A stretch of DNA of 64,000 bases from Myxococcales bacterium (GTDB taxonomy: Bacteria; Myxococcota_A; Polyangia; Polyangiales; Polyangiaceae), in the NCBI GenBank assembly GCA_012514535.1, contig JAAZAA010000056.1, positions 3,932-67,931 of the forward strand. The letters are read 5' to 3'. Under the pieces are notes generated by a model that saw only the letters and a program-made list of their open reading frames with translations, searched no databases and was not told the DNA's origin. Of this stretch, positions 7,688-44,300 are shown in pieces. How positions within the stretch are numbered: the stretch's first letter is position 1; every line of letters begins with the position of its first letter. The translations under genes and the position numbers were made by a program.

Positions 7688-8170
7688 ATGAGCACGACCC
7701 CGCCTCCCCTCGTGTATTCCTGTTCCGGCTGTTCCAGCGCTGCGCAGATGGCGAACCATCTCGCCCTCCAGCTCGACCGCCGCGGCGTGGCGGAGATGTC
7801 CTGCATCGCCGGCGTCGGCGGCGACGTGCCTCAGCTCGTGAACATCGCCCGCTCCGGGCGCCCCATCGTCGCCATCGACGGCTGTCCCCTGCGCTGCGTG
7901 GCCCACTCCCTCGCCCGGCACGGCCTGACCCCCCAGCGGCAGGTGACCCTCTCCGAGTTCGGGGTGCGCCGGAAGGCCCACGAGGACTTCGACCGTGCCG
8001 AGGCCGAGCGCCTCCTCGAGGCCCTCAGCGCCGAGCTGCGCGACGGGCTCACTCCGCGACCGGAGCCGCGCTCCGCTCCGCGGGCTCCGTCGGAGGGATC
8101 GCCCGGGTCGGGTTCGGGTGGGCTGGCGAGCGGGCTGGCGCCGTCCCCTGCAGCCCCAAGCGCCCGCTGA
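7688..8170 (+). CDS. DGC-domain putative zinc/iron-binding protein
   Basis: VYSCSGCSSAAQMANHLA...MSCIAGVGGDV...IVAIDGCPLRC matches my memory of the DGC family (CxxC, then the DGC motif). The C-terminal ~45 aa are low-complexity and overlap the convergent NrfD-like gene. Confidence 0.65.
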   Translation: MSTTPPPLVYSCSGCSSAAQMANHLALQLDRRGVAEMSCIAGVGGDVPQLVNIARSGRPIVAIDGCPLRCVAHSLARHGLTPQRQVTLSEFGVRRKAHEDFDRAEAERLLEALSAELRDGLTPRPEPRSAPRAPSEGSPGSGSGGLASGLAPSPAAPSAR

Positions 8171-10895: not shown

Positions 10896-10911
10896 TGCAG
10901 GGGACGTGCCA
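10896..10911 (-). promoter_or_regulatory. sigma-54-type -24/-12 promoter-like motif in front of the cytochrome c/FeS/NrfD operon
   Basis: Minus strand reads cTGGCAC-GTCCC-CTGCAg, one mismatch to TGGCAC-N5-TTGCA. GTG 10879 lies 18 nt after the -12 C. Confidence 0.55.
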
Positions 10912-11097: not shown

Positions 11098-11113
11098 TGG
11101 CGCGTGTCTTGCT
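11098..11113 (+). promoter_or_regulatory. sigma-54-type -24/-12 promoter-like motif in front of napD
   Basis: cTGGCGC-GTGTC-TTGCTt. napD ATG 11134 lies 22 nt after the -12 C. It shares the extended -12 string CTTGCTTGAG with the nnrS site. Confidence 0.55.
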
Positions 11114-22289: not shown

Positions 22290-22305
22290 TGCAGGGTACA
22301 TGCCA
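22290..22305 (-). promoter_or_regulatory. sigma-54-type -24/-12 promoter-like motif in front of the multicopper oxidase
   Basis: Minus strand reads tTGGCAT-GTACC-CTGCAa. GTG 22277 lies 14 nt after the -12 C (22291). Confidence 0.55.
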
Positions 22306-22883: not shown

Positions 22884-23594
22884 TCAGGCGGGGCTCCTCA
22901 CGAACCGCGGCTTGAGCACGTGGTTCTCGAGGTGCACGTGGATGAAGATGTCCGCCTCGAGCTCCCACAGCTCCGAGAACAACGTGCGATAGCTCGTGCA
23001 GGCCCAGTGGGGCAGTGAGAAGTCGTCGCTCGCCGCCCGGATCCGCTCCAGGAGCACGGCAATGTCCGTGTGATCTCCCGTCATCGAGCCCAGCAGGCGA
23101 CGGATCCGAGCTTCGTCCAGGGGCTCCGTCGTCAGCGCGGGGAAGAGCTCCTGCTCCTCTTCGTCGAGGTGCGCCAGCAGGATCTCCGAGAGCTCCTGGA
23201 CCGCGTCGTCGAGCTCTCGAAGCTTCGGGTTGGTGCCCCCGTGCACCCTGGACACCTTCGCGGCGAGCCCCTGCACGAAGGGGAGGCTCTTGCGGAGCGT
23301 GTCATGATGCCGCGCGACGATGTGTTCGACGAGCTCCGCGGTCGGGAGCTCCCGCAGTGACACGTCTTCCACCGACTGGCGCTCGGCGATGGTGCGCCCC
23401 AGCTCGTGAAGCAAGGCGTCCAACTCGACCCCACGTTTCTCCGCCGCTTCGGCGATACTCAGCTCCCCACCGCAACAGAAATCGATACGATGCCTCTGCA
23501 GCACGGCGGCGCAGGCGGAATGTTCGAGCACCAAGCCTGCGACGGTCTGGCGAGGATCCGGCGCCTGGAAGAGGTGCGTGCTTCGCTCTGTCAT
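22884..23594 (-). CDS. ric: Repair-of-iron-centres di-iron protein (RIC / YtfE / ScdA / DnrN / NorA family)
   Basis: N-terminal ScdA_N motif RIDFCCGG and C-terminal hemerythrin-like His/Glu pattern (HIVARHHD, LLAHLDEEEQELFP, HVHLENHVL). ATG 23594 is preferred over ORF-track 23771. Confidence 0.85.
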   Translation of the reverse strand: MTERSTHLFQAPDPRQTVAGLVLEHSACAAVLQRHRIDFCCGGELSIAEAAEKRGVELDALLHELGRTIAERQSVEDVSLRELPTAELVEHIVARHHDTLRKSLPFVQGLAAKVSRVHGGTNPKLRELDDAVQELSEILLAHLDEEEQELFPALTTEPLDEARIRRLLGSMTGDHTDIAVLLERIRAASDDFSLPHWACTSYRTLFSELWELEADIFIHVHLENHVLKPRFVRSPA

Positions 23595-23606
23595 GAGCCC
23601 CTCCTC

Positions 23607-23622
23607 AGCACGCGCCATGCCA
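23607..23622 (-). promoter_or_regulatory. sigma-54-type -24/-12 promoter-like motif in front of ric
   Basis: Minus strand reads cTGGCAT-GGCGC-GTGCTg. ATG 23594 lies 14 nt after the -12 C (23608). The intervening GAGGAGG could alternatively be a Shine-Dalgarno. Confidence 0.45.
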
Positions 23623-23707
23623 GCCGGGCCTCCGACGAGTTCCGGTGCTTTTCGGAGCCAGCGGCCACGCCGCGTCACCCTGGACTCGTTCCAGAGCCGG
23701 TCACAGA

Positions 23708-24712
23708 ATGGAACACGTGGAACGAGCCTCCTCAACCTGCAGCGTCTGTGGCCTGGTCCCCCTGGCGCCACGCCTGAAGGGCGCCACCCACGTGGTGGCG
23801 CGCAGTCCGTCCATGCAGGTGCTCCTCAAACGCGCGGCGCGGTTCGCTCAAAGCGACGCGCCCATCGCGGTCCTCGGGGAGACGGGGACCGGCAAGGAGG
23901 TCGTCGCGCGGGTCGTCCACGCTAACTCACCGCGGGCGCAGCGCCCCTTCGTGGCCGTGAACGTGGCCGCGCTGCCGACGGAGCTCCTCGAATCGGAGCT
24001 CTTCGGCCACGGCAAAGGGGCGTTCACGGGGGCCGCCGCCGCCCGGCGCGGGCTCTTCGAGGAGGCGGACGGGGGCACCCTCTTCCTCGACGAGATCGGA
24101 GAGATGTCCCTCCCCCTGCAGGCGAAGCTCCTCCGGGCGCTGCAGGACGGTGAGCTCCGGCGCGTCGGGGAGAACCAGGCGTTCTCCGTCGACGTGCGGG
24201 TGATCTGCGCCACCCACCGGAACCTGCGCGAGCGCGTCATGAACGGGCAGTTCCGGGAGGATCTCTTCTATCGCCTCAAGGTGCTCACGCTCGAGGTGCC
24301 CCCCCTCCGCGAGCGCCGCGAGGACCTCTTGCCGCTGGCACGACACTTCCTCACCCGGGAGAACACCAGCGCCATCGGGTTCGCCGCCGCCGCCGCGGAG
24401 CGGATGCTCGGTTACGCCTGGCCCGGCAACGTCCGGGAGCTCGAGAACGTCGTCAAGCATGGGGCCGCCCTCGCGAGCGGCCAGGAGATCGTCGTCGCCG
24501 ACCTCCCCGAGGAGTTGCTCCAGGATCGCCCTCCGCCCAGCGGTCCCACCGCGCCGACCAACCCATTCCGCACCCTCGCCGAGGTCGAGCGGGAGCACAT
24601 CCTCCGCGTGCTCGACGCCTGCGGGGGCTCCCAGTCCGAGGCGGCTCGGGTCCTCGGGGTCGCGCGGAACACCCTCTGGCGAAAGCTACGCAACCCCGAG
24701 CCAGCGGCATGA
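23708..24712 (+). CDS. sigma-54-dependent enhancer-binding protein consisting only of AAA+ core and C-terminal Fis-type HTH (no receiver/GAF/PAS domain)
   Basis: Walker A GETGTGKE, sigma-54 contact loop GAFTGA, Walker B LFLDEIGE, R-finger region, C-terminal HTH SQSEAARVLGVARNTLWRKL. Only ~35 aa precede the AAA+ core, and they contain CSVCG. Confidence 0.9.
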   Translation: MEHVERASSTCSVCGLVPLAPRLKGATHVVARSPSMQVLLKRAARFAQSDAPIAVLGETGTGKEVVARVVHANSPRAQRPFVAVNVAALPTELLESELFGHGKGAFTGAAAARRGLFEEADGGTLFLDEIGEMSLPLQAKLLRALQDGELRRVGENQAFSVDVRVICATHRNLRERVMNGQFREDLFYRLKVLTLEVPPLRERREDLLPLARHFLTRENTSAIGFAAAAAERMLGYAWPGNVRELENVVKHGAALASGQEIVVADLPEELLQDRPPPSGPTAPTNPFRTLAEVEREHILRVLDACGGSQSEAARVLGVARNTLWRKLRNPEPAA

Positions 24713-24748
24713 TTCCTGCCCCTGCTCGCCGTCGAGGAGCAAGAACCC

Positions 24749-25267
24749 ATGTTCGTCCAGATCGGCCGCCGCCAGCCCCCCGAGGGGCTCGTCACGTTGT
24801 TCCTCGAGTGCCACGGGCGGATCCGCGCGTTCACGGAGATCGCGCTACGGCTCGGTGAGCAAGAGGACGTGCCCCCCGAGGAGGTCGTCGACGCCTCGGC
24901 GCGCTGTCTGCGGTACTTCACGGAGGCCCTGCCCCTCCACATCGCCGACGAGGAGGAGAGCCTCCTCCCGCTTCTCCGGGGGCGCGAGGCGGCCGTCGAC
25001 GCCGCCCTCGACCTCATGCACGCGCAGCACGAGGCGCACGATCCGCTGCTCGCGGAGCTCGTCGACGCGCTCCGCGAGCGGAGGGGCGCCCCCGAGGCGA
25101 CGAGCGCCCGCGCGCGCCTTGCGACCGCCGCGCGGCGCGCGCAGCCGGAGCTGTTGCTGCACCTGGAGCACGAGGAGCGCGTCCTCTTCCCCGCTGCTCG
25201 ACGGCTCCTGACAGGAGCCGAGGAGCAGGCAGTACTCACCGAGCTGCGCGCGCGTCGTCATCGCTGA
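24749..25267 (+). CDS. Hemerythrin (HHE) domain protein, Hr-2, immediately downstream of the EBP
   Basis: LFLECHGRIRAF, LPLHIADEEESLLP, MHAQHEAHD, LLHLEHEERVLFP. Starts 36 nt after the EBP stop on the same strand. Confidence 0.75.
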   Translation: MFVQIGRRQPPEGLVTLFLECHGRIRAFTEIALRLGEQEDVPPEEVVDASARCLRYFTEALPLHIADEEESLLPLLRGREAAVDAALDLMHAQHEAHDPLLAELVDALRERRGAPEATSARARLATAARRAQPELLLHLEHEERVLFPAARRLLTGAEEQAVLTELRARRHR

Positions 25268-25329: not shown

Positions 25330-28104
25330 TCAGTCCGCCCGGTGGGGCACTAGCCCGCTGCGGTGTTCACTGCCCCCGGCCGCCCACTCCCGGGGCGGCA
25401 GCCTCTTGGGAGCGAGCGTCGCGAACAACGCAACCAGCGGGGCCTGGGACTCCCACACGCTGAACTCACTCATGTTGACCGCCGTGCGCGCGTCCACGTA
25501 CCGGAGCCCGAGCGGCTGGGATCCGAAGGAAGGATGAAACGCCGCAGCCAACGGCGCGTACCAGCTCGAACCCGGCATGTTGGCGACGGGGCCGTACACG
25601 GGGAGACCGGGCATGGGCGGCATCCCCTTGTCCTTGATGAAGGCGAGCGAGTCCGTGTGCAGAGGCTCCTGGGGCGTCACACTGCCCATACCGGTGACGT
25701 AGGACATGCCATTCGGGTTCCCCCCGAGCACGTAGTCCGCGGCCAGGCTGAGGGCGTCGACGTACTCCTGAGCGGGGCCCTGAGCCGTGAGCGCTTGATA
25801 GATGGGATCGGCGTGCAGCCCCGTGGCGACGGATCTGCCCCAGTCGGGGGGCGTCGCCGACGGCCGCCCGTTGCGCATGGCGTGCTCGGACGAGAGGAAC
25901 CGCTGGGCCGTCGCCCGCGCCCTGTCACCGAGAGCCGCACGCACGAAGGTCACGGTGTTCTGGTTGGCTCCCTCCGCGTCGAGGTAGCCCATCAGATAAT
26001 CGCTGAGGACGGGGGCGTTGCCCGTGAAGGAGCCCGGGTACACGTGAGACCAGGTCAACAGCCGCCCGTTCAGGGCGTTGTTGCCTCCCAGACCCGACCA
26101 GAGGCCGTCGAAGGCGCTCCGGTGCGTGGCCTCGGAGGTCGCCCGCGCCAGCTCGCTCACCGCGTAGAGGCGAAACTCCGCCGGAGCGGCCGCCCGCGTC
26201 GCCCAGGCGGAGGCGCGGACCGCCCGCTGCAGCAGCGCATCGGCCCGCTTGGCGTCGTAGGGCCGCACCAGGTGGGACGCCTGCGCGAAGAGCCCCGCGA
26301 CATAGGCCGTATGCCAGGGCTCCGGGTCGTAGGTCCAGTAGGCGAGCCGGTCCTCGTCGGCGTAGTAGTAGCCGCGCGGGTGGTGGGACGACTCCACGCC
26401 GGCCCGGACGCTGCCATCGTCGTTCTGCAAATCCTCCCAGGCGCGCACGCTGTGCAACGCCTCATCGAGCAGATCGGAGATGCCGTTGCCGCTCTCCGGG
26501 ATGTCGAGCTGGCCGTCGAGCAGGGCGTCTCGGTTGGCTTCGAAGGCGCGCAGCAAGTACTGGGCGACGACGACGTGGAAGGGGCGGATGTCGAAATCCC
26601 CGGCGTCGTGGTGGCCGCCGAGCACGGGGCGCTCGTTGCTCTTGGGGGTGTTCGTCGGGAACATGCCGGAGCGGTAGCTCCGCCCGCTGACGAAATAGGC
26701 GCTGCAGTGGTCGGGGCCGCGGCTCCAGTCCGTGTACTTTTCGTCCAGGTCGCCGCACCAGCGATTGAGGAACAGCCCCCGAGCGACCACGTAGAACGCC
26801 TTCAGGGCGGCGTCCTCGCTCACCGCGGTCGGATAGGACACCCCCACCCCTGGCACGCGGACACGGTAGCGCACGCCCTCCGCGGGCGGGACGCTCGCCA
26901 GATCGACCTGGTGCACCCGTCCGCCGGCCTCCGTGTCCCGGGCGGAGCGCTCGCTGACGGGAAGGTCCGCGGCGACCTCGCGCTTGGGGCGCAGGGCGTT
27001 GCGCGCGTCCGCGACCACGCTCACCGTGGCACCGAGCTGGCTCGGATCCACGTGGCCCCCGTCGCCGAGGTACGCGTGCAGGTAGGCGTACCGCTTGGTG
27101 GCTCTCGGGTTGTAACCGACTTGATTGACCTTGATGAGCGGGGACTCGAGGTAGCGGTCGCTGAACGGGACGACGACGTCGAGATCGGTGTTGGACCCAC
27201 CGCCGGAGTGCGTGACGGCGAGGAGCTCTCGCTCTCCGATCGGCTCCCCCAAGACGAGGAACAGGTGATCGTCGATGTCGACGACGTTGTCGGTCCCCCA
27301 TTTCTCCCACCCCACGGGGTAGCTCGGTTGCCCGACGGGGATGCTGCGACGACGCACGGCCGTCACCGGGACCTCCGTCCCGTCGGCGCGGCTCACGCGC
27401 CACTGTCCCCCCTGCCAGGCGGCGCCACGCGCCCCTTGGAGGCGCGACCCGTCGTACCGCGTCTCCCGGGTCTCCAGCACGAGCTGGAGGACGTTCGGGG
27501 CCACCGCATGCACGGAGCGCAGGGGCGTGTCGAGCTTCACTCGCGGGCCTCCGTGGGTCCGCGCGTGGGCGATCCCCCAGAGTGGCCCGCTCGCCGTGGT
27601 CGCCTCCAGACGAACGAACACGTCGGTGCTCGCGGCGATCTTTTCGATCACGTGGCTCGTGGCGGCGCCATCCAGGCTCGCGATCTCCACCTCGACGGGC
27701 AGCTGGTCCGCATCGCCCTTGGGCTCCGGCCCCATGAAGACCTTGATCTCCTCAGCGCCCTCGATGGGATCCCAAGACAGCTCGACGCGGCTGGAGCTGA
27801 CCTCCTCGACGCGCACCGCCACGTCGCCGAAGTCGATGCCCGCGTCCGGGTCCGAGTCCTCCCCGGGGCTCGGCGGCGGAGTGGTCGGTGGATCTTCCGT
27901 CTGGGGGGTCGACGGCGGCGTCGACGGGTCAGAGGGGCCCGCAGGAACGCCTGGGTCGGCGTCCTGCGGAGTACCTGGGCTCGCCTCCTCTTCCGGCGCA
28001 CATGCGGACCCGAGCAGGAGCACGAACGAACTGGCGATGGCGAGGCTGCGCCCGCGGTGGCTGCGGAGCCCGACGGAAGCGCGGGGGCGAAGGTCCGATT
28101 TCAT
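25330..28104 (-). CDS. Glycoside hydrolase family 9 endoglucanase with N-terminal FN3/Ig-like modules, predicted lipoprotein
   Basis: GH9 signature GGHHDAGDFDIRPF with downstream catalytic-domain similarity. ATG 28104 gives MKSDLRPRASVGLRSHRGRSLAIASSFVLLLGSAC. The ORF-track start 28395 adds an Arg-rich extension. Confidence 0.85.
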   Translation of the reverse strand: MKSDLRPRASVGLRSHRGRSLAIASSFVLLLGSACAPEEEASPGTPQDADPGVPAGPSDPSTPPSTPQTEDPPTTPPPSPGEDSDPDAGIDFGDVAVRVEEVSSSRVELSWDPIEGAEEIKVFMGPEPKGDADQLPVEVEIASLDGAATSHVIEKIAASTDVFVRLEATTASGPLWGIAHARTHGGPRVKLDTPLRSVHAVAPNVLQLVLETRETRYDGSRLQGARGAAWQGGQWRVSRADGTEVPVTAVRRRSIPVGQPSYPVGWEKWGTDNVVDIDDHLFLVLGEPIGERELLAVTHSGGGSNTDLDVVVPFSDRYLESPLIKVNQVGYNPRATKRYAYLHAYLGDGGHVDPSQLGATVSVVADARNALRPKREVAADLPVSERSARDTEAGGRVHQVDLASVPPAEGVRYRVRVPGVGVSYPTAVSEDAALKAFYVVARGLFLNRWCGDLDEKYTDWSRGPDHCSAYFVSGRSYRSGMFPTNTPKSNERPVLGGHHDAGDFDIRPFHVVVAQYLLRAFEANRDALLDGQLDIPESGNGISDLLDEALHSVRAWEDLQNDDGSVRAGVESSHHPRGYYYADEDRLAYWTYDPEPWHTAYVAGLFAQASHLVRPYDAKRADALLQRAVRASAWATRAAAPAEFRLYAVSELARATSEATHRSAFDGLWSGLGGNNALNGRLLTWSHVYPGSFTGNAPVLSDYLMGYLDAEGANQNTVTFVRAALGDRARATAQRFLSSEHAMRNGRPSATPPDWGRSVATGLHADPIYQALTAQGPAQEYVDALSLAADYVLGGNPNGMSYVTGMGSVTPQEPLHTDSLAFIKDKGMPPMPGLPVYGPVANMPGSSWYAPLAAAFHPSFGSQPLGLRYVDARTAVNMSEFSVWESQAPLVALFATLAPKRLPPREWAAGGSEHRSGLVPHRAD

Positions 28105-28117
28105 GGAAGCGGGATAT

Positions 28118-28133
28118 TGCAGGCTTCGGGCCA
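28118..28133 (-). promoter_or_regulatory. sigma-54-type -24/-12 promoter-like motif in front of GH9 cellulase 1
   Basis: Minus strand reads gTGGCCC-GAAGC-CTGCAa. ATG 28104 lies 15 nt after the -12 C (28119). There is no Shine-Dalgarno in between (ATATCCCGCTTCC). Confidence 0.5.
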
Positions 28134-28592
28134 CCTCCACGCCGCCACGTCCGCCCACCTTCGACCGCCGGAGTAGGCAAAACACCCCTTTCCTCACGCC
28201 TCCGCGCGATCCTCGACACCTCACGGCTCGTGGGCGACGTTCCATGACGAACAAGACTTGACGAGTTCTCTGACGCCCTCGGAGCAGCCCGCGGCGCCCC
28301 GAGCCGGACAGGTGCCCGCTGCTGTCCGGGCTTTCGCGAACACTCGTCCGGCGAGGAGGGCCACCGTCGTGCCTCTCGCACGCGCAGAGAGCCACGTCGA
28401 CACGCCTCTGCGAGCGCCGTCCAACGAAGGACTCACGTTCCGGAAGATCCCCGATCTACCAAAAAACTCACCCCACGAAAGGGCGCTCGCGCTAGCTGCG
28501 GCGCGCCTGATGGGCGTCAGTCGAAGACCGGACCCTGCCCCCGTACTCCAGGAGTCGCGTCCGGCGCGGAGCGACGTGCGTCCTGACGGCCG

Positions 28593-29330: not shown

Positions 29331-29363
29331 GGGCGAAGACTGGGCGAAGACTGGGCGAAGACT
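29331..29363. repeat. 3 x 11-bp perfect tandem repeat in the divergent Hr-3 / Hr-4 intergenic region
   Basis: GGGCGAAGACT x3 with one-helical-turn periodicity. It ends 28 bp upstream of the Hr-4 -24 element. Confidence 0.9.
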
Positions 29364-29390: not shown

Positions 29391-29406
29391 TGGCATGCCC
29401 GATGCT
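29391..29406 (+). promoter_or_regulatory. sigma-54-type -24/-12 promoter-like motif in front of Hr-4
   Basis: tTGGCAT-GCCCG-ATGCTa. The first start codon downstream of the predicted TSS is ATG 29446. The ORF-track ATG 29395 lies inside the TGGCATG element. Confidence 0.5.
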
Positions 29407-31810: not shown

Positions 31811-32090
31811 ATGCCGCAGACACCCCTCTCCGCCCCCAGGTCGTCCGAGCCCGCCTCTGGCTCCTCCCCCGCCCTGGACGGCACGTCCGCCGAGCTCCGT
31901 CACGGAGCTCCTCGGGTCCGGGAAGGCTTCAAGGCTTGGGCCGAGGCCGGCTTTCCGAGAGATCCCCACACGGGCAAGCCGGAGGCCAAGTACTTCCAAC
32001 GAGGCAATGACCGTTGGGTTCGAACGTCGTGGGAACAAGCCTTCGACTACGTGGCTCGCGCGCTCGACGACATTTCTCGCGTCTCCGCGC
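31811..32090 (+). pseudogene. Possible relic of a molybdopterin (DMSO-reductase family) oxidoreductase gene
   Basis: The translation ...FPRDPHTGKPEAKYFQRGNDRWVRTSWEQAFDYVARALDDISR resembles the conserved 'G-x-F-x-R-I/S-SW-D/Q-E-A-x-x-x-I-A' segment of Mo-bisMGD enzymes (cf. NarG ...RGGFVRSSWQEVNELIAA). I could not continue the similarity in any frame. Confidence 0.25.
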
Positions 32091-32391
32091 GGCGAGCCGT
32101 CGGCGTCCTCTCGGAGGGCGGGATGTCCGGGCGCCTCGGAGCCACTCCCCGCTGGGCGGCGCGCATGCCCTCGGTGACGCCGCGGCGGAGGAGGCGACCC
32201 ATTACGGCGCGCGCGAGAGCAAACGAGCAGACGATCGACGCAGCATCGGCGCGCGCGACCGCGCGCTCGGTGCTGCGACGTGCGCGAGCACTTGCACCAA
32301 CTCCCCGGTTGGGCCGGCGCAGGAAACCTTCCTCTCGCGACACCTGACCACCGTCATTGGCGTCAACGAGTCGGCACAACACCATCGGCTC

Positions 32392-34755
32392 ATGCATGGC
32401 GCGGAGCGAACGTGGACGCGAGCGGGTGTTGGCTGCGCGATCCTCCTGGCAGGGTTGGTCGCCTGTTCTTCCGGAGGCGAAGGCAGGGGCGCGGGAGGAG
32501 GGGGCGGCGGAAAGGCCAAAGGCTCGGGCGCGGGCGCCCAGGACGACGGCAACCCGCTGCTGGATCTCGACGGCGTCACGGAACACGTCAGCGAGCCCCC
32601 CGTCTGCTCCCCGGAGCCCTTCCCGCTGACATACACCTGCGAAGGCACCCCGGGTCCCTGGGCGGAGGCCCTGCAAAAGGCCCTGTGGTTCTTCAACGTG
32701 AACAAGTCCGGTCCCGGCGTGCACTGCACCGACGTGCAATGGCGCGGGGACGCCCACGTCGGCGACGGCGTGATCGCGCTCGATCCGGACGACCCCAACG
32801 GCGTGAACCTCAGCCAGGCCTTCATCGACGAGCACCGCGCGGTGCTCGATCCGGACGGCGACGGCACCGTCGATCTCGCGGGCGGCTATCACGACGCTGG
32901 CGACTACATCAAATTCACCCTGACGACGGCCTTCGCCGCGTCGATGATCGCCTGGAGCGTCTACGAGTACCCCGACTCCTACACGACGACGAGCCTCCTC
33001 GACGAGGCGCTGGGCCAGGTCCGCTGGGCGGCCGACTACTTCATGAAATCGACCTTCCGCGACGCGGACGGCAAGCTCGTCGCCTTCGCACATCAGGTCG
33101 CGGACGCGTCGGACCACTCCTGCTTCTGGATGCCCCCCGAGGTGCGTCGGACGGATCTGTGCCCCCGCAAGGCTTACTTCGTCCATGAAGGGCGCCCCGC
33201 CGCCGACGTCACCGCCGCGGCCGCCGCGACGCTCGCTCTCACGGGGATCGTCACCTACGCGCACCGCAAGACCGAAGCGGACGTCGAGTACGCCGAGCGC
33301 TGCCTCGACTACGCGAAAGCGTTGTATGAGTTCGCTGCACGGCACCCCGAGGCTCGCGCGAGCGACGACGGCGGCCTCTACACGTCGAACAGCTCGACGG
33401 ACGATTTGGCCTGGGCCGCGCTCTGGATCTATCTGGCCAACCCCGGGAAGAACAAGGCGTACCTCGACGCGATCGTGACCGGCGACAAGCCTTGGCTCTC
33501 CTTCGGGTCCCAGGCGAACATCCTCCAGCCAGGCCCCAACGGACAGTGGGTGCCTGCCTGGGCCGAGAGCTCACCCCACTCTTGGGACTCCATGCGCTCT
33601 GGCGTCATCGTCAAGCTGGCGCAGATCATGACGGATCGTGGCGATCCGATGGCTCCCCGCTGGGTGTCGATCGCACGAGAGATGGCGGAGGGCTTCGCCT
33701 CCGGGTCGTCGACGCCGGACGGCTTCTACGTCTACGCGAGCTGGGGATCGGCGCGCTACAACGCCGCCGCGCAGTTCACGACGCTGCTGTTCACCCGGGC
33801 GTTTCCGGACGACTCCGCCGCCGACACCCTCACCCGCTGGGCGCGCCGCCAGATCGATTACATCCTCGGCGACAACGACCTCGGGAAATCCTTCGTGATG
33901 GGCTACACGGACAGCTACGCGCTGCAGCCCCACCACGCGGCGGGGCACGCTTCCATCTACGGCCAGCCGAGCATCCCGGCCGAGAACCGCCACACCATTT
34001 GGGGCGCGCTCGTGAACGGACCGCAGGGTGACGGCTCCCACGTCGACGACCGGGACGACTACGGCTCGAACGAGGTCACGATCGACTACAACGCCGCCCT
34101 CGTCGCGGCGTTGGCGGCGCACTACGGCGATCGGGGCGCGGGAGAGTGCCCGCTCCTGTACTTCCCGCCGCTGGAGGATCCCATCGACGAGTTCTACGCG
34201 ATGGCCAACCTCAACGACGAACCCGGCGTGTGTCGGACGCAGGTCAACATCCGCACGATGAACGAGTCGATCCACCCACCGCGCTACGACGAGAAGCTCA
34301 CGACGCGCTTCTGGTTCGACGCCAGCGAGGTGATCGCCGCGGGCCTCGACCCCGTGAGCGCGGTGACGGCGCAGGTGATGCGTGACACGGGGACGAGCGC
34401 CACTCCGCCCGTGCCGACCCGGATCAGCGGCCCCATCGCCTGCGACACCGACGCCGGGGTTTACTACTTCGAGCTCGACCATACGGGCGCCAAGTTCTGG
34501 GGGCTCCTCCCCGTCCTCGGCGCGCCCCGAGACGTCCTGCTCGAGTACGGGCTCCCCCAGGCCGCGAGCTGCCCCTGGGACTCGAGCAACGACTGGAGCC
34601 TCCTGAACCTCCAGGTGGGAGGCACCGAGGAAGTCGCCAAGACGCCCTACGTCACCGTCTACAGCGACGGCGAGCTCATCTGGGGAGAGGAACCACCGTG
34701 CATGGGCGAGCGAAAGAAGGCCGAGCCTCCGCCGCCCCCCGTCTACGTCCGCTGA
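32392..34755 (+). CDS. Glycoside hydrolase family 9 endoglucanase with C-terminal CBM3c-like module, predicted lipoprotein
   Basis: ATG 32392 gives MHGAERTWTRAGVGCAILLAGLVAC. GH9 signature DLAGGYHDAGDYIKF, with WAALWIY and HHAAGHAS. The C-terminal ~200 aa are beta-rich (FYAMANLNDEPGVCRTQVNIRTMN). Confidence 0.9.
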   Translation: MHGAERTWTRAGVGCAILLAGLVACSSGGEGRGAGGGGGGKAKGSGAGAQDDGNPLLDLDGVTEHVSEPPVCSPEPFPLTYTCEGTPGPWAEALQKALWFFNVNKSGPGVHCTDVQWRGDAHVGDGVIALDPDDPNGVNLSQAFIDEHRAVLDPDGDGTVDLAGGYHDAGDYIKFTLTTAFAASMIAWSVYEYPDSYTTTSLLDEALGQVRWAADYFMKSTFRDADGKLVAFAHQVADASDHSCFWMPPEVRRTDLCPRKAYFVHEGRPAADVTAAAAATLALTGIVTYAHRKTEADVEYAERCLDYAKALYEFAARHPEARASDDGGLYTSNSSTDDLAWAALWIYLANPGKNKAYLDAIVTGDKPWLSFGSQANILQPGPNGQWVPAWAESSPHSWDSMRSGVIVKLAQIMTDRGDPMAPRWVSIAREMAEGFASGSSTPDGFYVYASWGSARYNAAAQFTTLLFTRAFPDDSAADTLTRWARRQIDYILGDNDLGKSFVMGYTDSYALQPHHAAGHASIYGQPSIPAENRHTIWGALVNGPQGDGSHVDDRDDYGSNEVTIDYNAALVAALAAHYGDRGAGECPLLYFPPLEDPIDEFYAMANLNDEPGVCRTQVNIRTMNESIHPPRYDEKLTTRFWFDASEVIAAGLDPVSAVTAQVMRDTGTSATPPVPTRISGPIACDTDAGVYYFELDHTGAKFWGLLPVLGAPRDVLLEYGLPQAASCPWDSSNDWSLLNLQVGGTEEVAKTPYVTVYSDGELIWGEEPPCMGERKKAEPPPPPVYVR

Positions 34756-35395: not shown

Positions 35396-38300
35396 TCAGC
35401 CCAGCTCCTCGAGGCCGCGCTTGGCGTCTTCGAGGCTCTCGTCGAGCTGCAGCGCCCGCTCGAAGTTCTGCTTGGCCTTGGGGAGCTCCCCGAGCTTCTG
35501 GTGGATCTGCCCGAGGCGGCAGAAGACCTCCGCCTTGGTCACCGGGGAGCTGTCGTCGAGCTTCTGCAGACGGAGGGCCAGGTACATCTTCTGGGCGTTC
35601 TTGTAGTCCTCCGTCTGGTACGCGAGGTCGCCGAGCTGCTTGAGCACGTGGACGTTCCCCGGCTCGATGCGGAACGCCTTGTTGAGCTCGTCGAGGGCCT
35701 TCTCCGTGTCGCCCTGGGACAGGTGAGCCGTCGCCAGGCGGCGATGGATCTCTGCGACCTCCTTCGATCGCTTGCCCGCGAAGCTCTCCACGACCTTCTG
35801 CAGGACCTCCACCGCCTCCGCACCCCGTCCCGAGGCGGAGTACGCGTCACTGAGCTCCATCAGCAGGTCACGGTCCTCCGGATCGAGCTCGCTGGCGCGG
35901 GCCAAGAGCTCCGCGGCCTGGGCGGTGTCATCCCGCTTCGTGCGATGCAGCTCCGCCGCTTCGCGGAAGAGCGCGACCTTGTCCGCTGGCTCCTCGGCGG
36001 CCTCTGCGTCCTCGACGAGCAAGGCGGCGAGCTTGTCCCACGCGCCGTTCGCCTCGTACTGGGACCGGAGGCGTCCACGCACCTCCTCGCTGGGCCCACC
36101 GCTCTGCAGAGCGCGTTCGAGGGCCGCCGCGGCCTTCTCGCCCTCTTCCAGCTCACGGTAGAGCTCCGCGAGCTCGACGCCTCGAGTCACGGCCTCCTCT
36201 CCTTCGAGGAGCGGCACGAGCCGTTCCAGGGCAGCGGCGCTCTCGGGGCGGCTCCCCTCGGCGTCATGTAGCCGCACGAGGGCCTCCAGCGCTCCCCGGT
36301 GGTTCGGGTCGCGCTCGAGCACCTCCTGATAGCGCTCCACCGCGCGGCCACCGTCCCCGAGGGGCCCCTCGTAGAGGTTCCCGAGACGGACGAGGAACCT
36401 GAGCTCGGACTCCTGGTCTCCTCGCTCCCGCGCCCCCTGGATCTGCGCATCGAGGAGATCAGCGAGCTCGTCGTTCCGGCCATCCTTCTCGTAGAGATCG
36501 CTGAGCATCACCACGGCGTCCGCCTGAGCGGGCAGCTCGTCCAGGATCGTCTGGAGGAGGTCGATGGCCGCGACGTGATCGTCCAGCCGCTCCACGAACA
36601 GGCGCGCGAGGTCGAGCCGCAAGCCGTTGCGTCGCTCCAGATCGTCCTCGAGATCGATCAGGCGCTCGCTGAGCCGCGACAGCTCCAGCCACTTCTCACC
36701 GCGCTCGTAGGCGGCCCAGAGGGCCTCCGACGCCTTGCGGTCCGTGGGCTCGTCCTCGAAGAGCTGCTCGAACAGCTCCGTGGCACGGTCCAGCTGCTCC
36801 AGGTGCTGGAGAGCGATCTCCGCGGCCTCGAAGCGCAGCGCGCGCACCGTCTTCATGTCGAGCTCGAGCTCCGCGCGGCGCACGAGCAGATCGAAGGTCT
36901 CCTGATGGTCCCCCGCGCTGCGCCGGGCCTCCGTGAGGCCAGCCAGCGCCCAGAGGTTCACCTCGTCGAGCTCGATCACCTTGCGCAGCAGCCGCTCCCC
37001 GAGGGCAGCGTCGCCGAGCCCGTCACAGAGCTCCTTGGCGCGTCGGTACATGCCGAGGCGCTCCTCGTCGTCGAGGGCCAGGCGCGCGCGCCGCTCCAAG
37101 GTCGCGATCAGGTCCCGCTCGCGCCCCGGATCGGTCTGCAGCGCCTCGAGCTCCGCCAGCACTTCGTCGTTGTCTGGCTCGAACTCGCTCGCCTTCACCA
37201 GAGCGGCCTCCGCCGCCGCGCGATCACCGAGTTTGTCCCGCTGCCAGGAGGCCACACGCACACACAGCTCGCGACCGCTCACGGGATCGAGGCCCTCCGC
37301 GGCCTCCACCGCCGACAGCACCGCCTGCGCTGCGTCCGCCCAGGCGCCGGTGATCGGGGCCAGGCGCTCGATCTCGTCCAACAGCGCGGCGTCGGTGGGA
37401 TCGTCCGCCAGACCTTGCTGCAGCACCTTCTGCGCGGCGCCAGGATCCTGGCAGTCTTCCTCCAGCACGCGCGCCAGCTCCCGACGCATGTCGATGCGCT
37501 CGACGATCGTCTCCGCCTTCGTCACGCGCCGCTCGAAGAGCCCCGCGAGGCGGTCCGTCTGTGACCGCTCCCGGTAGACGCCCTCCAGGACCTCGAAGGC
37601 CTCCTCGAAGCAGGTCGGCTCTTCCAGCAGCTGCTCCAAGAGCTCGGCCGCGCCCCGGTGTGCGCGATCGCGCTCGATGGCCAGGCGGAGCGATCCGAGC
37701 GCCTCGGCGGGTCGCTTCAGCTCCTCGAGCTGCAGACGACCCAGGCGGTAGTACAGCTCCGCCTGCTCCTCGTCGGCGTCCTCCAGGGCGAGACGCCTCT
37801 CCAGCACGCCCTGGAGCTCCTCGAGCTCACCGGACGCGGAGTAGAGGCGATCGAGAGCCTCGAGGAGCTCCGGCTGATCGCCCGCCTGCTCCGTCGCCCG
37901 GACGTAGGCGCGGATGGCGCGCTTGCCGTCGGACAGCGCCTGCTCCGCGAGCCGCCCGGCGCGCACCAGGAGGTCCCGCGCGATCTCGGCGTCGTAGGTC
38001 TCGCCGCCCCGCTCCTCGAGCGCGGCCACGTAGGCCTCCCAGTCGCCGGTCTGCGCCGCGAGCCGCTCGATCTCGACATGAAGATCGAGGGCCTCGGGCG
38101 TCTCTGCCAGTGCACGCAGGAGCGTCTTCAGCGCGTGCCTGGCGTTGCCGAGGGCCGACTCCTCCACCTGGGCGATCGCGCGCAGGGTCTCCGCCCGGGT
38201 GGACGGCTCCACCTCGATGGTGAGCCGCATCTCGAGCACGTCGATGAGCCGCTCGTGCAAGCCGCTCTGCCGCAAGACGGGCACGAGCACCTCGGCCGCG

Positions 38301-41300
38301 AGCCCCCGCAGGTGCTCGTGCTCCTGACCCAGCGCCCGCACGGCGTCGAGGCTCTCCTCGTCGTCGGAGCGCTCTTCCAGCACCAGGCGGTAGGCTTCGA
38401 TCGCCTCCTCGAAGCTCTCGAGCTTGCTCGCCAGGATGCGGCCGACCTCCGTGCGCAGCTGGATGCGGCGCTCGGGGTTCTGCTCCGTGCTCGCCTCGAG
38501 CCGCAGGTTGTCGAGCAGATCGGGCCACATCTCCTCGGCGCGATAGAGCCGGTTGAGCTCGGCCCGGGTCTCGGCGCTGTCCGGGCGCAGCGCGATCGCC
38601 TGCACCAGCGACTCGATCGCCCGCGGGCGGTCGATGAGATCCTGCTCCAGACGGCGGGCGGATCGCGTCATCAGCTCGAACTTGAGCTCGTCCTCCTCCG
38701 GCGTCGCGAGGTCGAAGCGCTGCTGGTAGAGGTCGACCAGACGCGCCGCCTCGCCGCGCCCCTCGTGGAGCGCGATCAGACAATCCAGGGTCGGCGCGTG
38801 GCTCGGATCGATGTCGAAGGCCTGCTCGTACGCCTCGAGGGCCCCCGGGGCGTCGTCGAGCATGTGCTGACGCAGCTCGCCGATGCGTCGCCACGCCTCC
38901 GCCCGCTCGTCCTCCTCGAACACGAGGTCCGCCTTGGCCAAGAGGGCCGTCTCGAGGGTCTTCCAGTCGCTCAGCAGCAGGGAGAGCCTCTCCATGCTCA
39001 GGACCGGCTCGAGCTCCCCTTGCTCGATGTCGTGCAGACCCACGTACGCGTTCAGGGCCTTCCTCGGATCGTCGAGGTGTCGGTCGTGGACGGCCGCGAG
39101 CTTCGCGAGCAGGTCGCGCTTGCCGAGGAGATCGGGGTGCTCGGCCAAGAGCTGGTCGTAGATCTCCGTGAGCTCGTCCCAGCTCTCGGTCGCCTCCACC
39201 AGGCGCTCGTAGTCGGCGCGTACGTCCGGGTCGTCGGGTTCGACGCGCACCGCCTCGGCGAGGACTCGCCGCGCCTTGCCCTGGTCCTGGCCCCGGGACT
39301 CCCAGAGCTCCGCCGTCTCCCGGAGGACGCTCACCTGCTCGGCGGGATCCGTCGCCAGGGAGAAGCGGTCCTCGTTCAGCTTGATGAGCCGCTTCCAGTC
39401 GTCGGCCGACTCGTAGAGCGGCCGCAGGATCTCCACGATCCGCTCCTTCAGGGTCTCGTGCTCACGGAACGCCTCCAGGGAGCGGATGGCCTCCGTGTGG
39501 GTGGGGAGCTCGCGCACGATCTCCTCGAGCTGGTCGACGGCGCGCTCCGTCTGGCCCAGCCGCGTGTCGAACAACCGCGCCAGCGACAGGCGGAAGTCCG
39601 CCGCCGCCTCGGGAGCGCTGTCTTCGGCGCGCCGCTGGTAGAGCTCGGCGAGATCCTCCCAGCGCTCCTTCGTCGTGTAGAGCTCCGTCAGGGCGTCGAG
39701 GGAGCTCGAGTCGCGCTCGTCGATCTCGAGCACCGCCTGGTGCGCCTCGATGGCCGCGTCCAGATCCTGGAGGTGGTCCCGCTGCAGGGCGGCCACCGTG
39801 TGCAGGAGGCGCACGCGGTCGTCCGGCTCGTAGCGATGCTCCAGCGCCGTGCCGTACAGCTCGACGCGCTCCTGATGAGCCTCCGCGCGGATCAAGATCG
39901 CGTCGATGGCCTCGAAGAGATCCTGAGCTTCGGGAGCGAACGCCAGCGCGCGCCGGTACAAGGGCAACGCCTGCGCGTCGTTGCCCCCTTCGACGAAGAG
40001 CTCCGCGGCGCGCCGCGCCAGCCGCGTGCTGCCCTCGTCGTCCACCTCGACGTGCTCGAGCCGGGCGGCGTAGATCTCCGCCAAGCGCTGGTGCGCTCCG
40101 GCGACCTTCGCCAGACGCTCGAGCTCCGAGACGATCTCCTCGTCGTTGATGTCGTCTTCGAGGAGCTGCGCCGAGATCTCGAGGGCGCCTGCGTAGTCTT
40201 CCTTCTGCTCCTCCTGGATCTGCGCCAACCGGGTGATGAGCTCCCGGCGCTCCTCGGGCACGTCGGAGCTCTCCAAGCGCGTCCGGAGCGCCGCGGTCAC
40301 GCGATCGTAGTCCGCGCGGAGCAGGTAGACCGGCTCGAGCAGCGTCGCCGCTCGGGCGCGCTGGGACGGCTCCTCGGCGCTCCCCTGCAGCTTCTCCAGA
40401 AGCTCGATCGCGCCCGCGTGCTGGTTGTCGCACTCCAGCGCCTGCTCGAGCTCGTCGAGCGCCCGCTCCACGTCGCCGCTGCGCTCTTCGGCGACGCGGG
40501 CGACCTGGACGCGCAGATCGGGCTCGCTCCCGTCCCGCTCGTCGATGCGGCGCTGCAGGAGGGACGTGAGGTCGTCCCAGCGCTCCGCCTTCGTGTAGAG
40601 GGTCTGGAGCGCTTCGACGGCCCTGGCGTCCAGGCTCGAGGTGATGATGGACTCGTACACCTCGATGGCCCGTTCGGGCTCGTTCAGCTCTCCGGACAGG
40701 AGCTCCGCCTGGCGATAGGACAGCTCACGCCGCTCGTCGTCCGAGTCGGACACCTCCGCCCGCCGCTCGAGAATCTCCAGGAGACGCGCCGCCTCCCCGG
40801 ACTCCCCGTAGAGCTCTTCGAGCGCCAACAGGGACGCTCGATCGTCCGCGCGGAGCTCGAGGACCTTGCAGTAGGTCTCCTTCGCTCGCTCCGGGGAGCC
40901 CAGCTCGTAGCGATGGAGCTCCGCCACGCGCCGGGTGACGTCCACCTGCAGGTCCCCGTCGAACAGCTCGGGGACGATGGCTTCGAGCACCTCGGCCTGC
41001 TCGCGGCGCCGACCGGTGGTGCCTGCGAGGCGATCCAGGGTGACGAGGTAAGGGGTGACGTCCCCTTGAGCCGCCGCGTCGCGCACGGCCCGCTCCGCGT
41101 AGCCGTAGGCCCGCGCCGCGTCGTCGAGGGCATCCTCGGCGATGCGGGTCGCCAGCTCGAGCTTGTCGAGGCGCTCGCTGGGATCGTCCGCGACCTCCAC
41201 CTCGATCTCGACGATCTCGATGAGCCGGGCGTGATCCCCCTCGGCCTCGTAGATCGGGTGGAGGATCTCCGCCGCCTCCATGCGCGCGGTGCGGTCCTCC

Positions 41301-44300
41301 AGCGCCAGCATCTCGTTGAGGGCGGCGCGGCTCGCCCCGTGGGTCGAGTCGATCGAGATCGCGCGCCGGTAGGCCTCCAGCGCCCCGGGGTAATCCTTGG
41401 TGTGATCCCGCCGGGAGTTGCCGAGGGCGGCGAGCACCGCGAGGCGCTCCTCGTCCGTCTCCACGATGTCCAGGTGCCGCTCGTAGGTCTCGTTCAGGTC
41501 GTCCCAGCGCTCGAGCTCCGCGAACAAGCCCTCCAGGGACTGGTAGATCTCCGCGGCGGGGCCGAACTCATCGACGATGGACTGGAACGTCTCCACCGCG
41601 GCGCTCTTCTGCTCCAGGCGATCGCGCTGCACCTCCGCCTGCCGCAGCAGGAGCGCGCGACGCTCCTCACCGCTGGCGAGATCACGACGTCGTTCGAGGA
41701 CGCCGACGAGCTGCTCCCAGCGACCGGCGCGGGTGTAGAGATCGTCGAGAGCCGCGAGGGCTTCCGGTTCGTCCGGGGTCTCCTCCAGGCGGGCCTCCCA
41801 GGCCGCGATCGCGCCCTCGGTGTCCCCGAGCACCTCCGCCGACAGCTCTCCGATGCGCGCCAGGAGCTCGCCGCGACGCTCTCCGTCGGACTCGAGCGCC
41901 ACCTGGAGCCGCAGCACGTCCGCGAGCTCCTCGGGGCGGTTCGATCCGACGTAGATGGCCTCGAGAGCCCGCGCCGCGGGCAGGACGAGATCCGCGTCCT
42001 CGGGGTCGAGCCCGAGCACCCGTCGATACGTCCCCTCGGCGGCGGTGATGTCGCCCAAGGCCTCCTGCTGCAGGGACGCCACCTGCATGAGGATCTCCCC
42101 CTTGAGGGGTGCCTCCTCCGCCGCGTCCGCGGTGGCGACGAGGACCTCCGCCGTCCGCGCGTACCGACCCAGACGCCTGCCCGACTCGACGAGCCGCTCG
42201 CGCAGCTCCGCGTCGAGGGGATCGAGGGGCGCCAGCTCCGCGAAGACCTCGAAGGACCCTTCGTCGTCGTGGAGCCGCTCGTTCCGGAGCGTGGCGATAC
42301 GCCGCAAGAGCTCGCGCCGCTCATCCTCCCGCTGACGCTGCAGCTCCTCGTCGAGGTCCTCGCCCTCCTCCGGGCGCAGCGAGTCGACGCGCACGCAGAG
42401 CACGCGCACGAGATCCCGGGTCTCGTCCCGGAGCTCGTAGACGGTCTCGAGCGCTCGCGCCGCCCTCCCCTTGACGTTCCCGACCTCCAACAAGAGCTCG
42501 GCGACCTCCCTCGCCTCCGTGTCGTTCGGGTCGTCGAGGAGCAGGCTCTCCACGTGTCCCACCGCGCGCTCGGGCTGGTGCAGCTCGAGGGCGAGCCGAG
42601 CGGCGCGCACCCGGAGCTCGCTCAGGGCCTCGCCGGACGCGCCCTCCAGGCGGAGCTCGACGATCTCCGAGAGCCGCTCGCTGCGACCCAGACGCGAGTA
42701 GAGCCGGTCCAGCGCCTCCAAAGAGGCCGCGTGCGCCGGATCGAGCCGCAGGATGCGCTCGTGGTAGCCTGCGGCCTTGGCCGCGTCGTCGATGATCTCC
42801 TCGGCGATCAGCGCGACCTCCGCGAGCATCTCGATGCGGCGCGCCTCGTCGTCGAGCCGCTCCGTGGCCCGCTCGTAGAGGGACTCGAGCTCCCCCCAGC
42901 GCTCCGCGCCCGTCAGGATCTCCTTCAGCCGCCCGAAGGCCTGCTCGTCGTCCGGATCCAGGCCCAGGATCATCTCGAGGTACGGGACGGCGCCCAGGGA
43001 GTCGCCGAGCACCGAGTCGTGCAAGCGCGCGGCGCGGCCGGCCAGCTCCCGCAGGATCTCCGGCTCCAGCCCCTCGGCGACGCTGGATCGCAGGGTCTCC
43101 CGATAGCGCTCGGCGAGCTCCGTGGGACGCCCCGCCAAGCTCCCGAGGCGATCGCCTCGATCCCAGAGCCCGAGCTCCCCCGGATGGCTCCCGAGGGCTT
43201 CCAGGATCGCGCCCAGGGCGGCGCCGAGCTCTCCGAGCTTCTCCTCGAAGACCGTGGCCAGGCGGTGATACAGGTCGATGCGCTCGCCCGCCTCCGCCGT
43301 CTCGCCGATCAGGACGACCAGCGCGCGCGCCTCCTGGCGCGCGTCACCCGTGAGCTCGAACTGCTCCACGAGCAGCCGCGCCGCCTCGGCGCGCACTCCG
43401 GGCTCGTCCACCACCTTCTGGAGCACGTCGATCGCACGGACGCGATCGCCGTCGAGCTCCAGCGCCTCCCTCGCCGCGCTCAACGCCTCGGCAGGCTGCG
43501 CCAGTCGATCGACGTAGAGCTCCGCCAGCTCGAGCGCCTTGGTCGCCCGCTCCTCGGCGGGCGCGAGCTGCCGCTGCCGCTCCAGGCCGACGGCGGCGGC
43601 GGTCCAATCCTCTGCCGCCAGGGCGAGCCGCACGCTGGCCGCGAGAGCCACGGCGTCGTCCGGCGCGAGCTCCAGCGCCCTCGAGTAGAGCTGCCGGGCT
43701 CGATCCACCTCACCGAACTCCTCCTCGAGCTGCGCCCAGTCGTTGAGCAACCGAGCGCGCTCCGCGTCGCTCTCGGCATGCTCCGTCCGGAGCTCGTGGA
43801 GCCAGCGCAGCCCATCGCGCCGGTCCCCGCGGCGCAGGATGTTCTCGAGCAGGCTGCCCGCCTCGACGTCCGTCGGGCGCCCCTCGAGGACCCCCTGCAG
43901 GCGGGCGACCGCGTCATCGACGCGCCCGAGCTCGTCCGCGTACACGGTGGCGAGCTTCAGACAGAGCAGCCGCTGTTCGTCGGCGTGGGCCGGGCTCGGA
44001 GCGGTCTGTACCGGCACCGCCTCGACGACCGTCGCCGTCTTCTTGCGCCGACGGCGCTTACGGCGCCCGCCACCGCCGGCGGCCTGCTCCAGCTCCTCGG
44101 AGGTGGGCGGCGCCTCGCTGACGGAGGCCTTCGTGACCTCGCCGGACTGCGCCATCTCGAGGGACGACGCATCGAGCTCGGCGAGACGCCCCTCGAGCGC
44201 CGACACCAGCTCGTCCCAGTGCCCGGACGCCCGCGCCGTCTGCTCGAGCAACTCCACGGCCCGGGGATCCGCCGGGCTGATCTCGTAGGCGCGGCGCGCG

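Follow-up and report, generated by a model that had tools for sequence, protein, structure and literature searches.

Within a 64,000-nt stretch of DNA from a Myxococcales bacterium (contig JAAZAA010000056.1 of assembly GCA_012514535.1; hereafter the window) we identified a gene for a small sigma-54 activator, a bacterial enhancer-binding protein (hereafter the EBP). It lies divergent from ric, which encodes a RIC/YtfE-type di-iron protein, and is followed on the same strand by the gene for a stand-alone hemerythrin-like protein (Hr-2). Comparison with related loci showed that this predicted activator has an operator of its own and a conserved sigma-54 target, ric. The N-terminus of the EBP is a 29-residue tip with two invariant cysteines, and this tip, rather than the neighbouring hemerythrin, is likely to be the receiver of the signal. 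The best reading of the comparative data is that the EBP would be dedicated to activating ric under nitrosative or iron stress, in the manner of NorR.

The activator and its N-terminal tip

The EBP gene and its parts were located as follows (residues numbered from the ATG).

23708-24712, + strand: EBP coding sequence, 334 aa from the ATG (open reading frame (ORF) and frame limits, Pfam, homologues)
23708-23794, + strand: N-terminal 29-residue peptide of the EBP, without a folded domain (no Pfam or NCBIfam match; AlphaFold2)
23738-23752, + strand: CSVCG knuckle, residues 11-15 (Cys11, Cys14, Gly15), candidate metal/thiol sensor (conservation)
23795-24292, + strand: AAA+ sigma-54 interaction domain, from residue 30 (Pfam PF00158)
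23876-23899, + strand: Walker A, GETGTGKE, residues 57-64 (motif position)
24017-24034, + strand: GAFTGA loop, residues 104-109 (motif position)
24080-24103, + strand: Walker B, LFLDEIGE, residues 125-132 (motif position)
24572-24691, + strand: Fis-type helix-turn-helix (HTH) DNA-binding domain (Pfam HTH_8, 2e-14, 53.5 bits)

Searches against Pfam identified Sigma54_activat (PF00158; 1.8e-70, 236.4 bits against a cut-off of 20.2), AAA_lid_14 and HTH_8, and the nearest solved structures to the core were ZraR (1ojl) and NtrC1. The predicted protein has the hallmarks of a bacterial enhancer-binding protein, namely an AAA+ core, Walker A and B motifs, a GAFTGA loop, a Fis-type HTH and a candidate operator near a -24/-12 promoter. 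An AlphaFold2 model built from a 64-sequence alignment had a mean predicted local distance difference test score (pLDDT) of 87; for residues 1-30 the values fell to 44-61, and the model showed no secondary structure there.

From 5.8 billion proteins we retrieved more than 100 EBP homologues at 67-91 % identity and 95-100 % query coverage, nearly all of them 325-345 aa long. A profile of the N-terminus matched just 19 proteins among 1.84 billion representatives, the sister clade P0247/P0248 included, and the family therefore forms a discrete clade. None of the curated models in Pfam or NCBIfam claims the EBP as a member, and a literature search found no paper describing the family. By these comparisons, it is a so far undescribed, compact clade of predicted minimal sigma-54 activators from Myxococcota and Acidobacteriota, and protein CAN97032.1 of Sorangium cellulosum So ce56 places a member in a culturable host. 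The loci compared here (given as L and a number) comprised 45 metagenome loci from an alignment of the N-terminus only, two genome loci and the contigs of individual homologues; neighbouring genes were called by searching the window proteins and a hemerythrin hidden Markov model against the six-frame ORFs of all loci. The N-terminus-only alignment recovered family loci better than a scan with the whole protein, which on genome contigs was swamped by generic EBPs and gave only L001 and L002 as true family members. The EBPs of L001 and L002 (Acidobacteriota) are still ~70 % identical over their full length to those of L137 and the window (Myxococcota), which suggests either strong constraint or horizontal transfer of a ric-EBP module.

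No domain or family match for the tip was found in Pfam (E ≤ 10) or NCBIfam. A hidden upstream sensor domain was excluded: the reading frame of the EBP opens only at 23597, just past the divergent ric start at 23594, and a longer N-terminus is therefore impossible. In many relatives an in-frame stop stands directly ahead of the initial Met-Glu-His (MEH). The N-termini of the homologues share the pattern C-x-x-C-G-L-x-P followed by R-L-x-G-A-T, in which C11, C14 and G15 are invariant in both the N-terminal (A1) and the full-length (A2) alignment, whereas P18 does not vary in A2 and is conserved to at least 90 % in A1. When 40 distinct DNA sequences were compared, the variability of codons 11-30 was 0.29 at the first codon position, 0.20 at the second and 0.55 at the third, and both Cys codons alternate between TGC and TGT, as Gly does among synonymous GGN codons; the tip is therefore translated and under purifying selection. 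An extra Cys four residues before the first Cys of the CxxC (C-x3-C-x2-C) occurs in 37 of 105 sequences. The sister clade retains the CxxC within FERGPxLCxVCRL; its locus L136 (P0247) encodes a more distant short EBP whose N-terminus reads FERGPxLCxVCRL...RRCSR.

A preliminary description of this stretch, made from the sequence alone, had recognized the complete Walker motifs, the GAFTGA loop and the Fis-type HTH, all of which are borne out by Pfam and by the motif positions. It had also proposed a short N-terminus of ~35 residues without a sensor module, and held that no corrected upstream start would reveal a conventional sensor domain. The frame limits agree with the latter point, and Pfam and AlphaFold2 with the lack of a folded domain, whereas the length had to be revised to ~29 residues. 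The label 'sensor-less' was not supported, as the tip has a CxxCG(L)xP motif under purifying selection and as such is a candidate built-in sensor.

The operator and the divergent ric gene

Three features make up the region upstream of the EBP.

23688-23723, no strand: candidate operator or upstream activator site, with GTTCCA (23688), GTCACA (23700) and TGGAAC (23709 and 23718) (conservation)
22884-23594, - strand: ric, for a RIC/YtfE-type di-iron protein, divergent from the EBP (ScdA_N and Hemerythrin, Pfam)
23607-23622, - strand: sigma-54 (-24/-12) promoter of ric, TGGCATGGCGCGTGCT (position weight matrix (PWM) and conservation)

The operator sequence of the window, CGTTCCAGAGCCGGTCACAGAATGGAACACGTGGAACG (23687-23724), overlaps the EBP start codon. 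Across the family it follows the pattern GTTCCA-N6-GTTCCA-N12-TGGAAC, and the last half-site contains the start itself (A-TGGAAC-A, encoding Met-Glu-His/Gln). The core GTTCCA-N12-TGGAAC was perfect in 24 of 38 non-redundant loci and had at most one mismatch in 33, against a chance expectation of 0.035 % per locus; several loci have an additional GTTCCA upstream. The centre of the operator lies 80-120 bp from the ric sigma-54 promoter, the usual distance of an activator site from its promoter, and the site probably limits expression of the EBP as well. In the sister clade (L136) a GTTCCA...TGGAAC site is found just upstream of the EBP ATG. The idea that the MEH start forms part of a metal site was largely discarded: the half-site encloses the start codon, so that conservation of Met-Glu-His/Gln is for the most part a by-product at the DNA level, and the sister clade has its half-site ahead of the ATG. 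In L001, L084, L086, L128 and others, the 12-nt spacer contains ATG-TAG, ATG-TAA or ATG-TGA just ahead of the real ATG. No further cluster of GTTCCA/TGGAAC hexamers exists in the window besides that at 23688-23723; a GTTCC-rich stretch at 7720-7754 was rejected as an operator, since it corresponds to the CSGCS codons of the ORF at 7688-8170.

The conserved partner of the EBP is ric, which we found in 28 of 31 non-redundant EBP loci with at least 450 nt of upstream sequence. Most often ric is the immediate divergent neighbour, and in some loci it lies downstream; among the three loci that lack ric, L116 alone has long flanking sequence to either side. The ric product has the vicinal Cys-Cys motif FCCGG and scored 202.7 bits against TIGR03652, 2 bits short of the cut-off of 204.7. 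Its promoter, TGGCATGGCGCGTGCT, reached 19.1 on a PWM derived from the family with the window left out (empirical P=0.004), and the consensus of ric-strand sigma-54 promoters across related loci is TGGCACG-N4-GTGCT. Given the operator and this promoter, the EBP almost certainly switches on ric. The -24/-12 element of ric ends just 12 nt ahead of the ric ATG (window 23592-23622, - strand), and GAGGAGG, the apparent ribosome-binding site, falls between the -12 element and the predicted start. A transcript from this sigma-54 promoter would have next to no leader (2-3 nt). An equally tight geometry was observed at the FeS_assembly_P gene of L082 (promoter at 9084, gene start at 9112).

Downstream hemerythrins and control of the activator

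Downstream of the EBP the following two features were identified.

24749-25267, + strand: Hr-2, stand-alone hemerythrin-like di-iron protein (Pfam PF01814)
24705-24720, + strand: candidate sigma-54 promoter of Hr-2, CGGCATGATTCCTGCC, overlapping the EBP stop codon (sibling conservation, PWM)

Hr-2 matched the Hemerythrin family (PF01814) at 5.2e-15 (56.5 bits, cut-off 25.3) and scored below the cut-off of every RIC or DnrN model. Its gene starts 36 nt past the EBP stop, is preceded by a GAGGAG ribosome-binding site, and no terminator was found in the gap. In the AlphaFold2 model (pLDDT 94) four long helices form a four-helix bundle, and the di-iron ligands H22, H64xxxE68, H94 and H138xxxE142 are invariant or nearly so across 50 homologues. 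In all 50, the first iron-ligand His is also immediately preceded by a Cys (C21-H22; window 24809-24814; alignment A3), and the protein ends in a basic tail in which R167, R169 and R170 never vary (25247-25258); neither feature is obviously needed by a simple carrier of O2 or nitric oxide (NO).

Of 25 loci that extend at least 600 nt beyond the EBP, eight have a same-strand hemerythrin gene directly after it, and the subtypes differ; most loci are metagenomic fragments, and absence of Hr-2 here means that it is not adjacent, rather than not in the genome. The eight are the window, L081, L083, L086 (weak), L109, L112, L136 (sister clade, a DUF2249-hemerythrin) and L137 (Sorangium cellulosum). 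Elsewhere the EBP is followed by genes for FeS_assembly_P and DUF1858/DUF2249 proteins (L082, L138), by a second RIC and a Crp gene (L128) or by unrelated genes. At other sites, homologues of Hr-2 (~50 % identity) either stand alone or follow a gene for cytochrome c' or for an alginate-export porin. None of them lies next to an EBP, and no sigma-54-like promoter was found for these homologues. In L133-L135 (around 2449) a porin gene of the alginate-export type, preceded by the operator-like GTTCCAGACTGAAACGGCTCGAAAC, has an Hr-2 homologue immediately after it; the first gene of the window (182-1933, + strand) also encodes an Alginate_exp porin.

Where a hemerythrin gene does follow the EBP, it tends to have a sigma-54-like promoter of its own. 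In the window, CGGCATGATTCCTGCC scored 8.2 on the PWM (P ~0.07 alone), is identical in the 91 %-identical sibling L081 while the flanking bases differ, and predicts a transcription start ~20 nt before the Hr-2 ATG. In L001 a second perfect operator separates ric from an Hr-2-like gene, and -24/-12 elements, one per strand, flank it. In the Sorangium locus L137, TGGCACGTCTCCTGCC stands directly after the EBP stop and ahead of the hemerythrin gene, and in the sister clade (L136) GGGCACGGCGCGTGCA precedes the DUF2249-hemerythrin. In L092, L109 and L112, where an Hr-2-like gene and then ric follow, GGGCACG-N4-CTGCA lies within the 3' end of the EBP gene, 16 nt ahead of the Hr-2-like start. Such sigma-54-like elements were found in six of seven independent locus groups, each with P=0.016-0.08 against 200-nt background windows. 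With promoters of this kind, the downstream hemerythrins look like members of the regulon; Hr-2 is most likely an output of the EBP system with its own weak sigma-54 promoter, and possible roles for it are the buffering of NO or O2 and feedback on the EBP switch.

What the preliminary description had said of Hr-2 as a protein, that it is a hemerythrin-type di-iron protein encoded 36 nt downstream on the same strand, is confirmed by Pfam, the ligands and the model. The same is true of a divergent gene for a di-iron protein with a sigma-54-like promoter, given its ScdA_N and Hemerythrin domains and the conservation of TGGCATGGCGCGTGCT, and the placing of the EBP in a nitrogen-oxide and iron-centre stress neighbourhood, tightly linked to hemerythrin-type di-iron proteins, found support as well. 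Co-transcription of the EBP and Hr-2 fits the short gap without a terminator, but CGGCATGATTCCTGCC gives Hr-2 a sigma-54-like element of its own over the EBP stop. On the pairing of short EBPs with hemerythrin genes elsewhere, suggested at that time as a check, the comparison of loci gave eight of 25, with ric as the conserved partner. Of the proposed two-polypeptide analogue of NorR, a NorR-like function remains reasonable, whereas Hr-2 as the obligatory sensor in trans was not supported, in view of these counts, the Hr-2 homologues without an EBP and the separate sigma-54-like promoters.

The model that we propose is as follows. From the operator over its own start codon, ~100 bp upstream, the EBP would activate the -24/-12 promoter of the divergent ric, its task being to turn on ric together with variable companions (Hr-2-type hemerythrins, DUF2249/DUF1858 proteins, a SufT-like FeS_assembly_P protein and a cupin). 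The signal would be nitrosative or iron-centre stress, because the putative regulon (RIC, hemerythrins, SufT-like and DUF2249/DUF1858 proteins, and NnrS in L086) and the nitrite and nitrate genes of the surrounding island point that way. The CxxCG knuckle would provide two thiolates per subunit, and any metal or cluster site would therefore be shared between subunits, with two of them holding one Fe, Zn or Fe-S centre; alternatively, a disulfide or S-nitrosothiol could link them. Such an intersubunit link would keep the EBP as a non-activating dimer, and damage at the Cys site by NO, nitrite-derived species or oxidation would free the AAA+ domains to form an active hexamer. The integrity of a shared site would therefore be coupled to the dimer-to-hexamer transition, which controls activity in EBPs of the NtrC1/DctD type. 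For the intersubunit Cys knuckle as a sensor acting in cis, we regard the case as evenly balanced.

Several points weigh against this assignment. Metal binding or NO reactivity of the tip is something that we infer from its sequence; two Cys per chain are the bare minimum, and the EBP of the window lacks the third Cys of 37 of its 105 relatives. The low AlphaFold2 confidence at the tip would suit disorder as well as an oligomer-dependent site, and the tip might just as well serve for the docking of a partner protein. In four loci (L083, L092, L109 and L112) the EBP stop and the Hr-2-like start overlap as ATGA or GTGA; overlaps of this kind are seen in partner pairs that need a fixed stoichiometry, and here they hint at stoichiometric co-production, by analogy with nifLA-type partners. 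The Hr-2 promoter candidate of the window is weak alone (P ~0.07). Finally, several strong sigma-54 promoters of the island have no recognizable operator.

A bolder version, tentative and in our estimate on the unlikely side, makes the 29-residue CxxCG tip a complete self-resetting sensor, in which a shared Fe or Fe-S centre would lock the inactive dimer, NO would destroy the centre and free hexamer assembly, and the induced RIC, hemerythrins and SufT-like protein would rebuild the centre and switch the system off. Were this true, the sensor would be a client of the repair system under its own control.

With or without this extension, the EBP would be a previously unlisted regulator of ric (RIC/YtfE) and would give Myxococcota and Acidobacteriota, both abundant soil phyla, a switch for nitrosative or iron-centre stress that lies outside all reference models. 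A Cys tip of 29 residues that gates a sigma-54 AAA+ activator would be the smallest sensory module known for such proteins, and a compact part for engineered NO or redox reporters.

Control by a partner protein deserves consideration. To our knowledge, all well-studied EBPs that lack a regulatory domain have a controller acting in trans, in many cases one encoded within their regulon (PspF-PspA, HrpS-HrpV, FleQ-FleN), and PspA is both target and inhibitor. By this precedent, a regulon-encoded di-iron protein of the hemerythrin fold would bind the domain-less EBP and hold it off while its di-iron site is intact, until nitrosylation or damaged clients release the EBP; RIC would be the partner in most genomes, Hr-2 additionally or instead in some, and the Cys tip a docking or ligand-sharing element. 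The near-universal presence of RIC next to the EBP, the four stop-start overlaps, the DUF2249-hemerythrin that also follows the sister-clade EBP, and the invariant Cys21-His22 and basic RxRR tail of the Hr-2 family would all fit. However, ric adjacency is explained equally well by ric being the target, and no EBP-hemerythrin fusion was found among 116 Hr-2 homologues or the top 120 EBP homologues. Hr-2 homologues also exist without an EBP, about two thirds of family members have no adjacent Hr-2, and conservation as strict as that of CxxCG is found in metal knuckles more typically than in docking peptides. We consider such a partner switch unlikely.

Control through expression alone appears distinctly improbable. 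Here the EBP would be constitutively active, like HrpR/S, and governed only by its own synthesis, for instance through a Crp/Fnr-type regulator of the island or by autoregulation at the operator, with the CxxC tip binding a structural zinc for dimerization. The operator over the start codon does suggest tight autoregulation, a Crp/Fnr-family gene lies in the island (6149-6847) and adjoins the EBP in L100 and L128, and CxxCG is also a classic zinc knuckle. Against this, Fnr/Dnr-type boxes (TTGAY-N4-RTCAA) occur in the window at chance level only, and the regulon of RIC, SufT-like protein and hemerythrins points to iron-centre damage as the signal, for which a thiolate-metal site would be a natural receiver.

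Finally, that Hr-2, co-transcribed with the EBP, senses NO or O2 and activates or de-represses the EBP in trans is very improbable: the gene order is kept in the sibling L081 and in L083, L092, L109, L112 and L137, and the di-iron ligands are intact, but two thirds or so of the loci have no hemerythrin at this position and the rest have different subtypes, the hemerythrin of L001 and L137 is clearly a separate sigma-54 transcription unit, sigma-54-like elements precede the hemerythrin in six of seven independent groups, a sensor required for activation should not depend on activation itself, and the invariant Cys tip would stay unexplained.

The surrounding island and comparison with known systems

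The window is ~70 % G+C, and its island contains genes for a NirBD-type nitrite reductase, the Crp/Fnr regulator, NrfD and 4Fe-4S subunits, a molybdopterin oxidoreductase, NnrS, MoaA, a multicopper oxidase, a cupin and four stand-alone hemerythrins. Using the family PWM, we located five further strong sigma-54-type promoters.

7527-7542, - strand: promoter of Hr-1 (family PWM)
10896-10911, - strand: promoter of the 4Fe-4S (Fer4)/NrfD operon (family PWM)
11098-11113, + strand: promoter of the molybdopterin oxidoreductase gene (family PWM)
22290-22305, - strand: promoter of the multicopper oxidase gene (family PWM)
29391-29406, + strand: promoter of Hr-4 (family PWM)

These scored 12-18, several in the form TGGCATG. 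None of the five has a recognizable GTTCCA/TGGAAC operator, though no second EBP was found in the window, and a search for repeats shared among the island promoters gave nothing convincing. The sequence GGGCGAAGACT occurs in three exact tandem copies with an 11-nt period at 29331-29363 (+ strand), 28-60 nt upstream of the Hr-4 promoter; it is unique in the window and absent from all compared loci, the 91 % sibling included. Divergent from Hr-1, the ORF at 7688-8170 (+ strand) encodes 160 aa with YSCSGCSS...AIDGCPLRC and resembles a DGC-type zinc/redox domain by motif. Two genes of the GH9 cellulase family (25330-28395, - strand; 32011-34755, + strand) are interleaved with the hemerythrin genes, and beyond them lies a 3,887-codon ORF with strong coding bias (35396-47056, - strand).

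The ric product itself is like RIC, YtfE, NorA and ScdA in its ScdA_N vicinal Cys-Cys motif and hemerythrin domain. Hr-2 is like other stand-alone hemerythrin-like proteins in its H-HxxxE-H-HxxxE ligand set and four-helix bundle and, unlike RIC, has no ScdA_N domain.

Among regulators, the closest functional relative of the EBP is NorR. Both are sigma-54 EBPs with a Fis-type HTH, encoded divergent from an NO-stress target with a -24/-12 promoter, with several upstream half-sites in the intergenic region and probable autoregulation. In Ralstonia, NorR activates norA, a homologue of RIC (PMC9045102, PMC1274295, PMC9268430). Unlike NorR, the EBP has no GAF domain in Pfam or NCBIfam and hence no mononuclear non-heme iron pocket; it scored 319.7 bits against the NorR model NF003451 (cut-off 476), over the AAA+ and HTH regions only. 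The operators differ too, NorR sites being three GT-N7-AC elements upstream of the target promoter (PMC1274295), as opposed to GTTCCA-N6-GTTCCA-N12-TGGAAC. A 2022 review of RIC gives NsrR, DnrD, NorR and SrrAB as the known regulators of ric (PMC9268430), a list from which the EBP family is absent.

In architecture, and in architecture only, the EBP resembles PspF: as in PspF and HrpR-HrpS, the AAA+ core begins within ~30 residues of the N-terminus, an HTH lies at the C-terminus and there is no N-terminal regulatory domain. Its score against TIGR02974 (258.3 bits, cut-off 443.55) is below that expected of a PspF orthologue. No conserved Cys motif is known in PspF and HrpR-HrpS, whose controllers are PspA or HrpV, whereas the short tip of the EBP has the invariant CxxCG. 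N-terminal Cys motifs are present in VnfA and AnfA. OrpR binds a [4Fe-4S] cluster in a PAS domain (PMC8359166) and PexR binds Zn or Fe in a GAF domain (PMC12754779), and in both removal of the sensor leads to constitutive activity. Unlike these four proteins, with their ligands in folded PAS or GAF domains of more than 100 residues, the EBP has a 29-residue tip with two Cys per chain, and no PAS or GAF domain was found. If our reading of the tip holds, the EBP would share with OrpR, PexR, VnfA and AnfA, by analogy, the gating of an AAA+ sigma-54 activator by Cys- or metal-based redox sensing.

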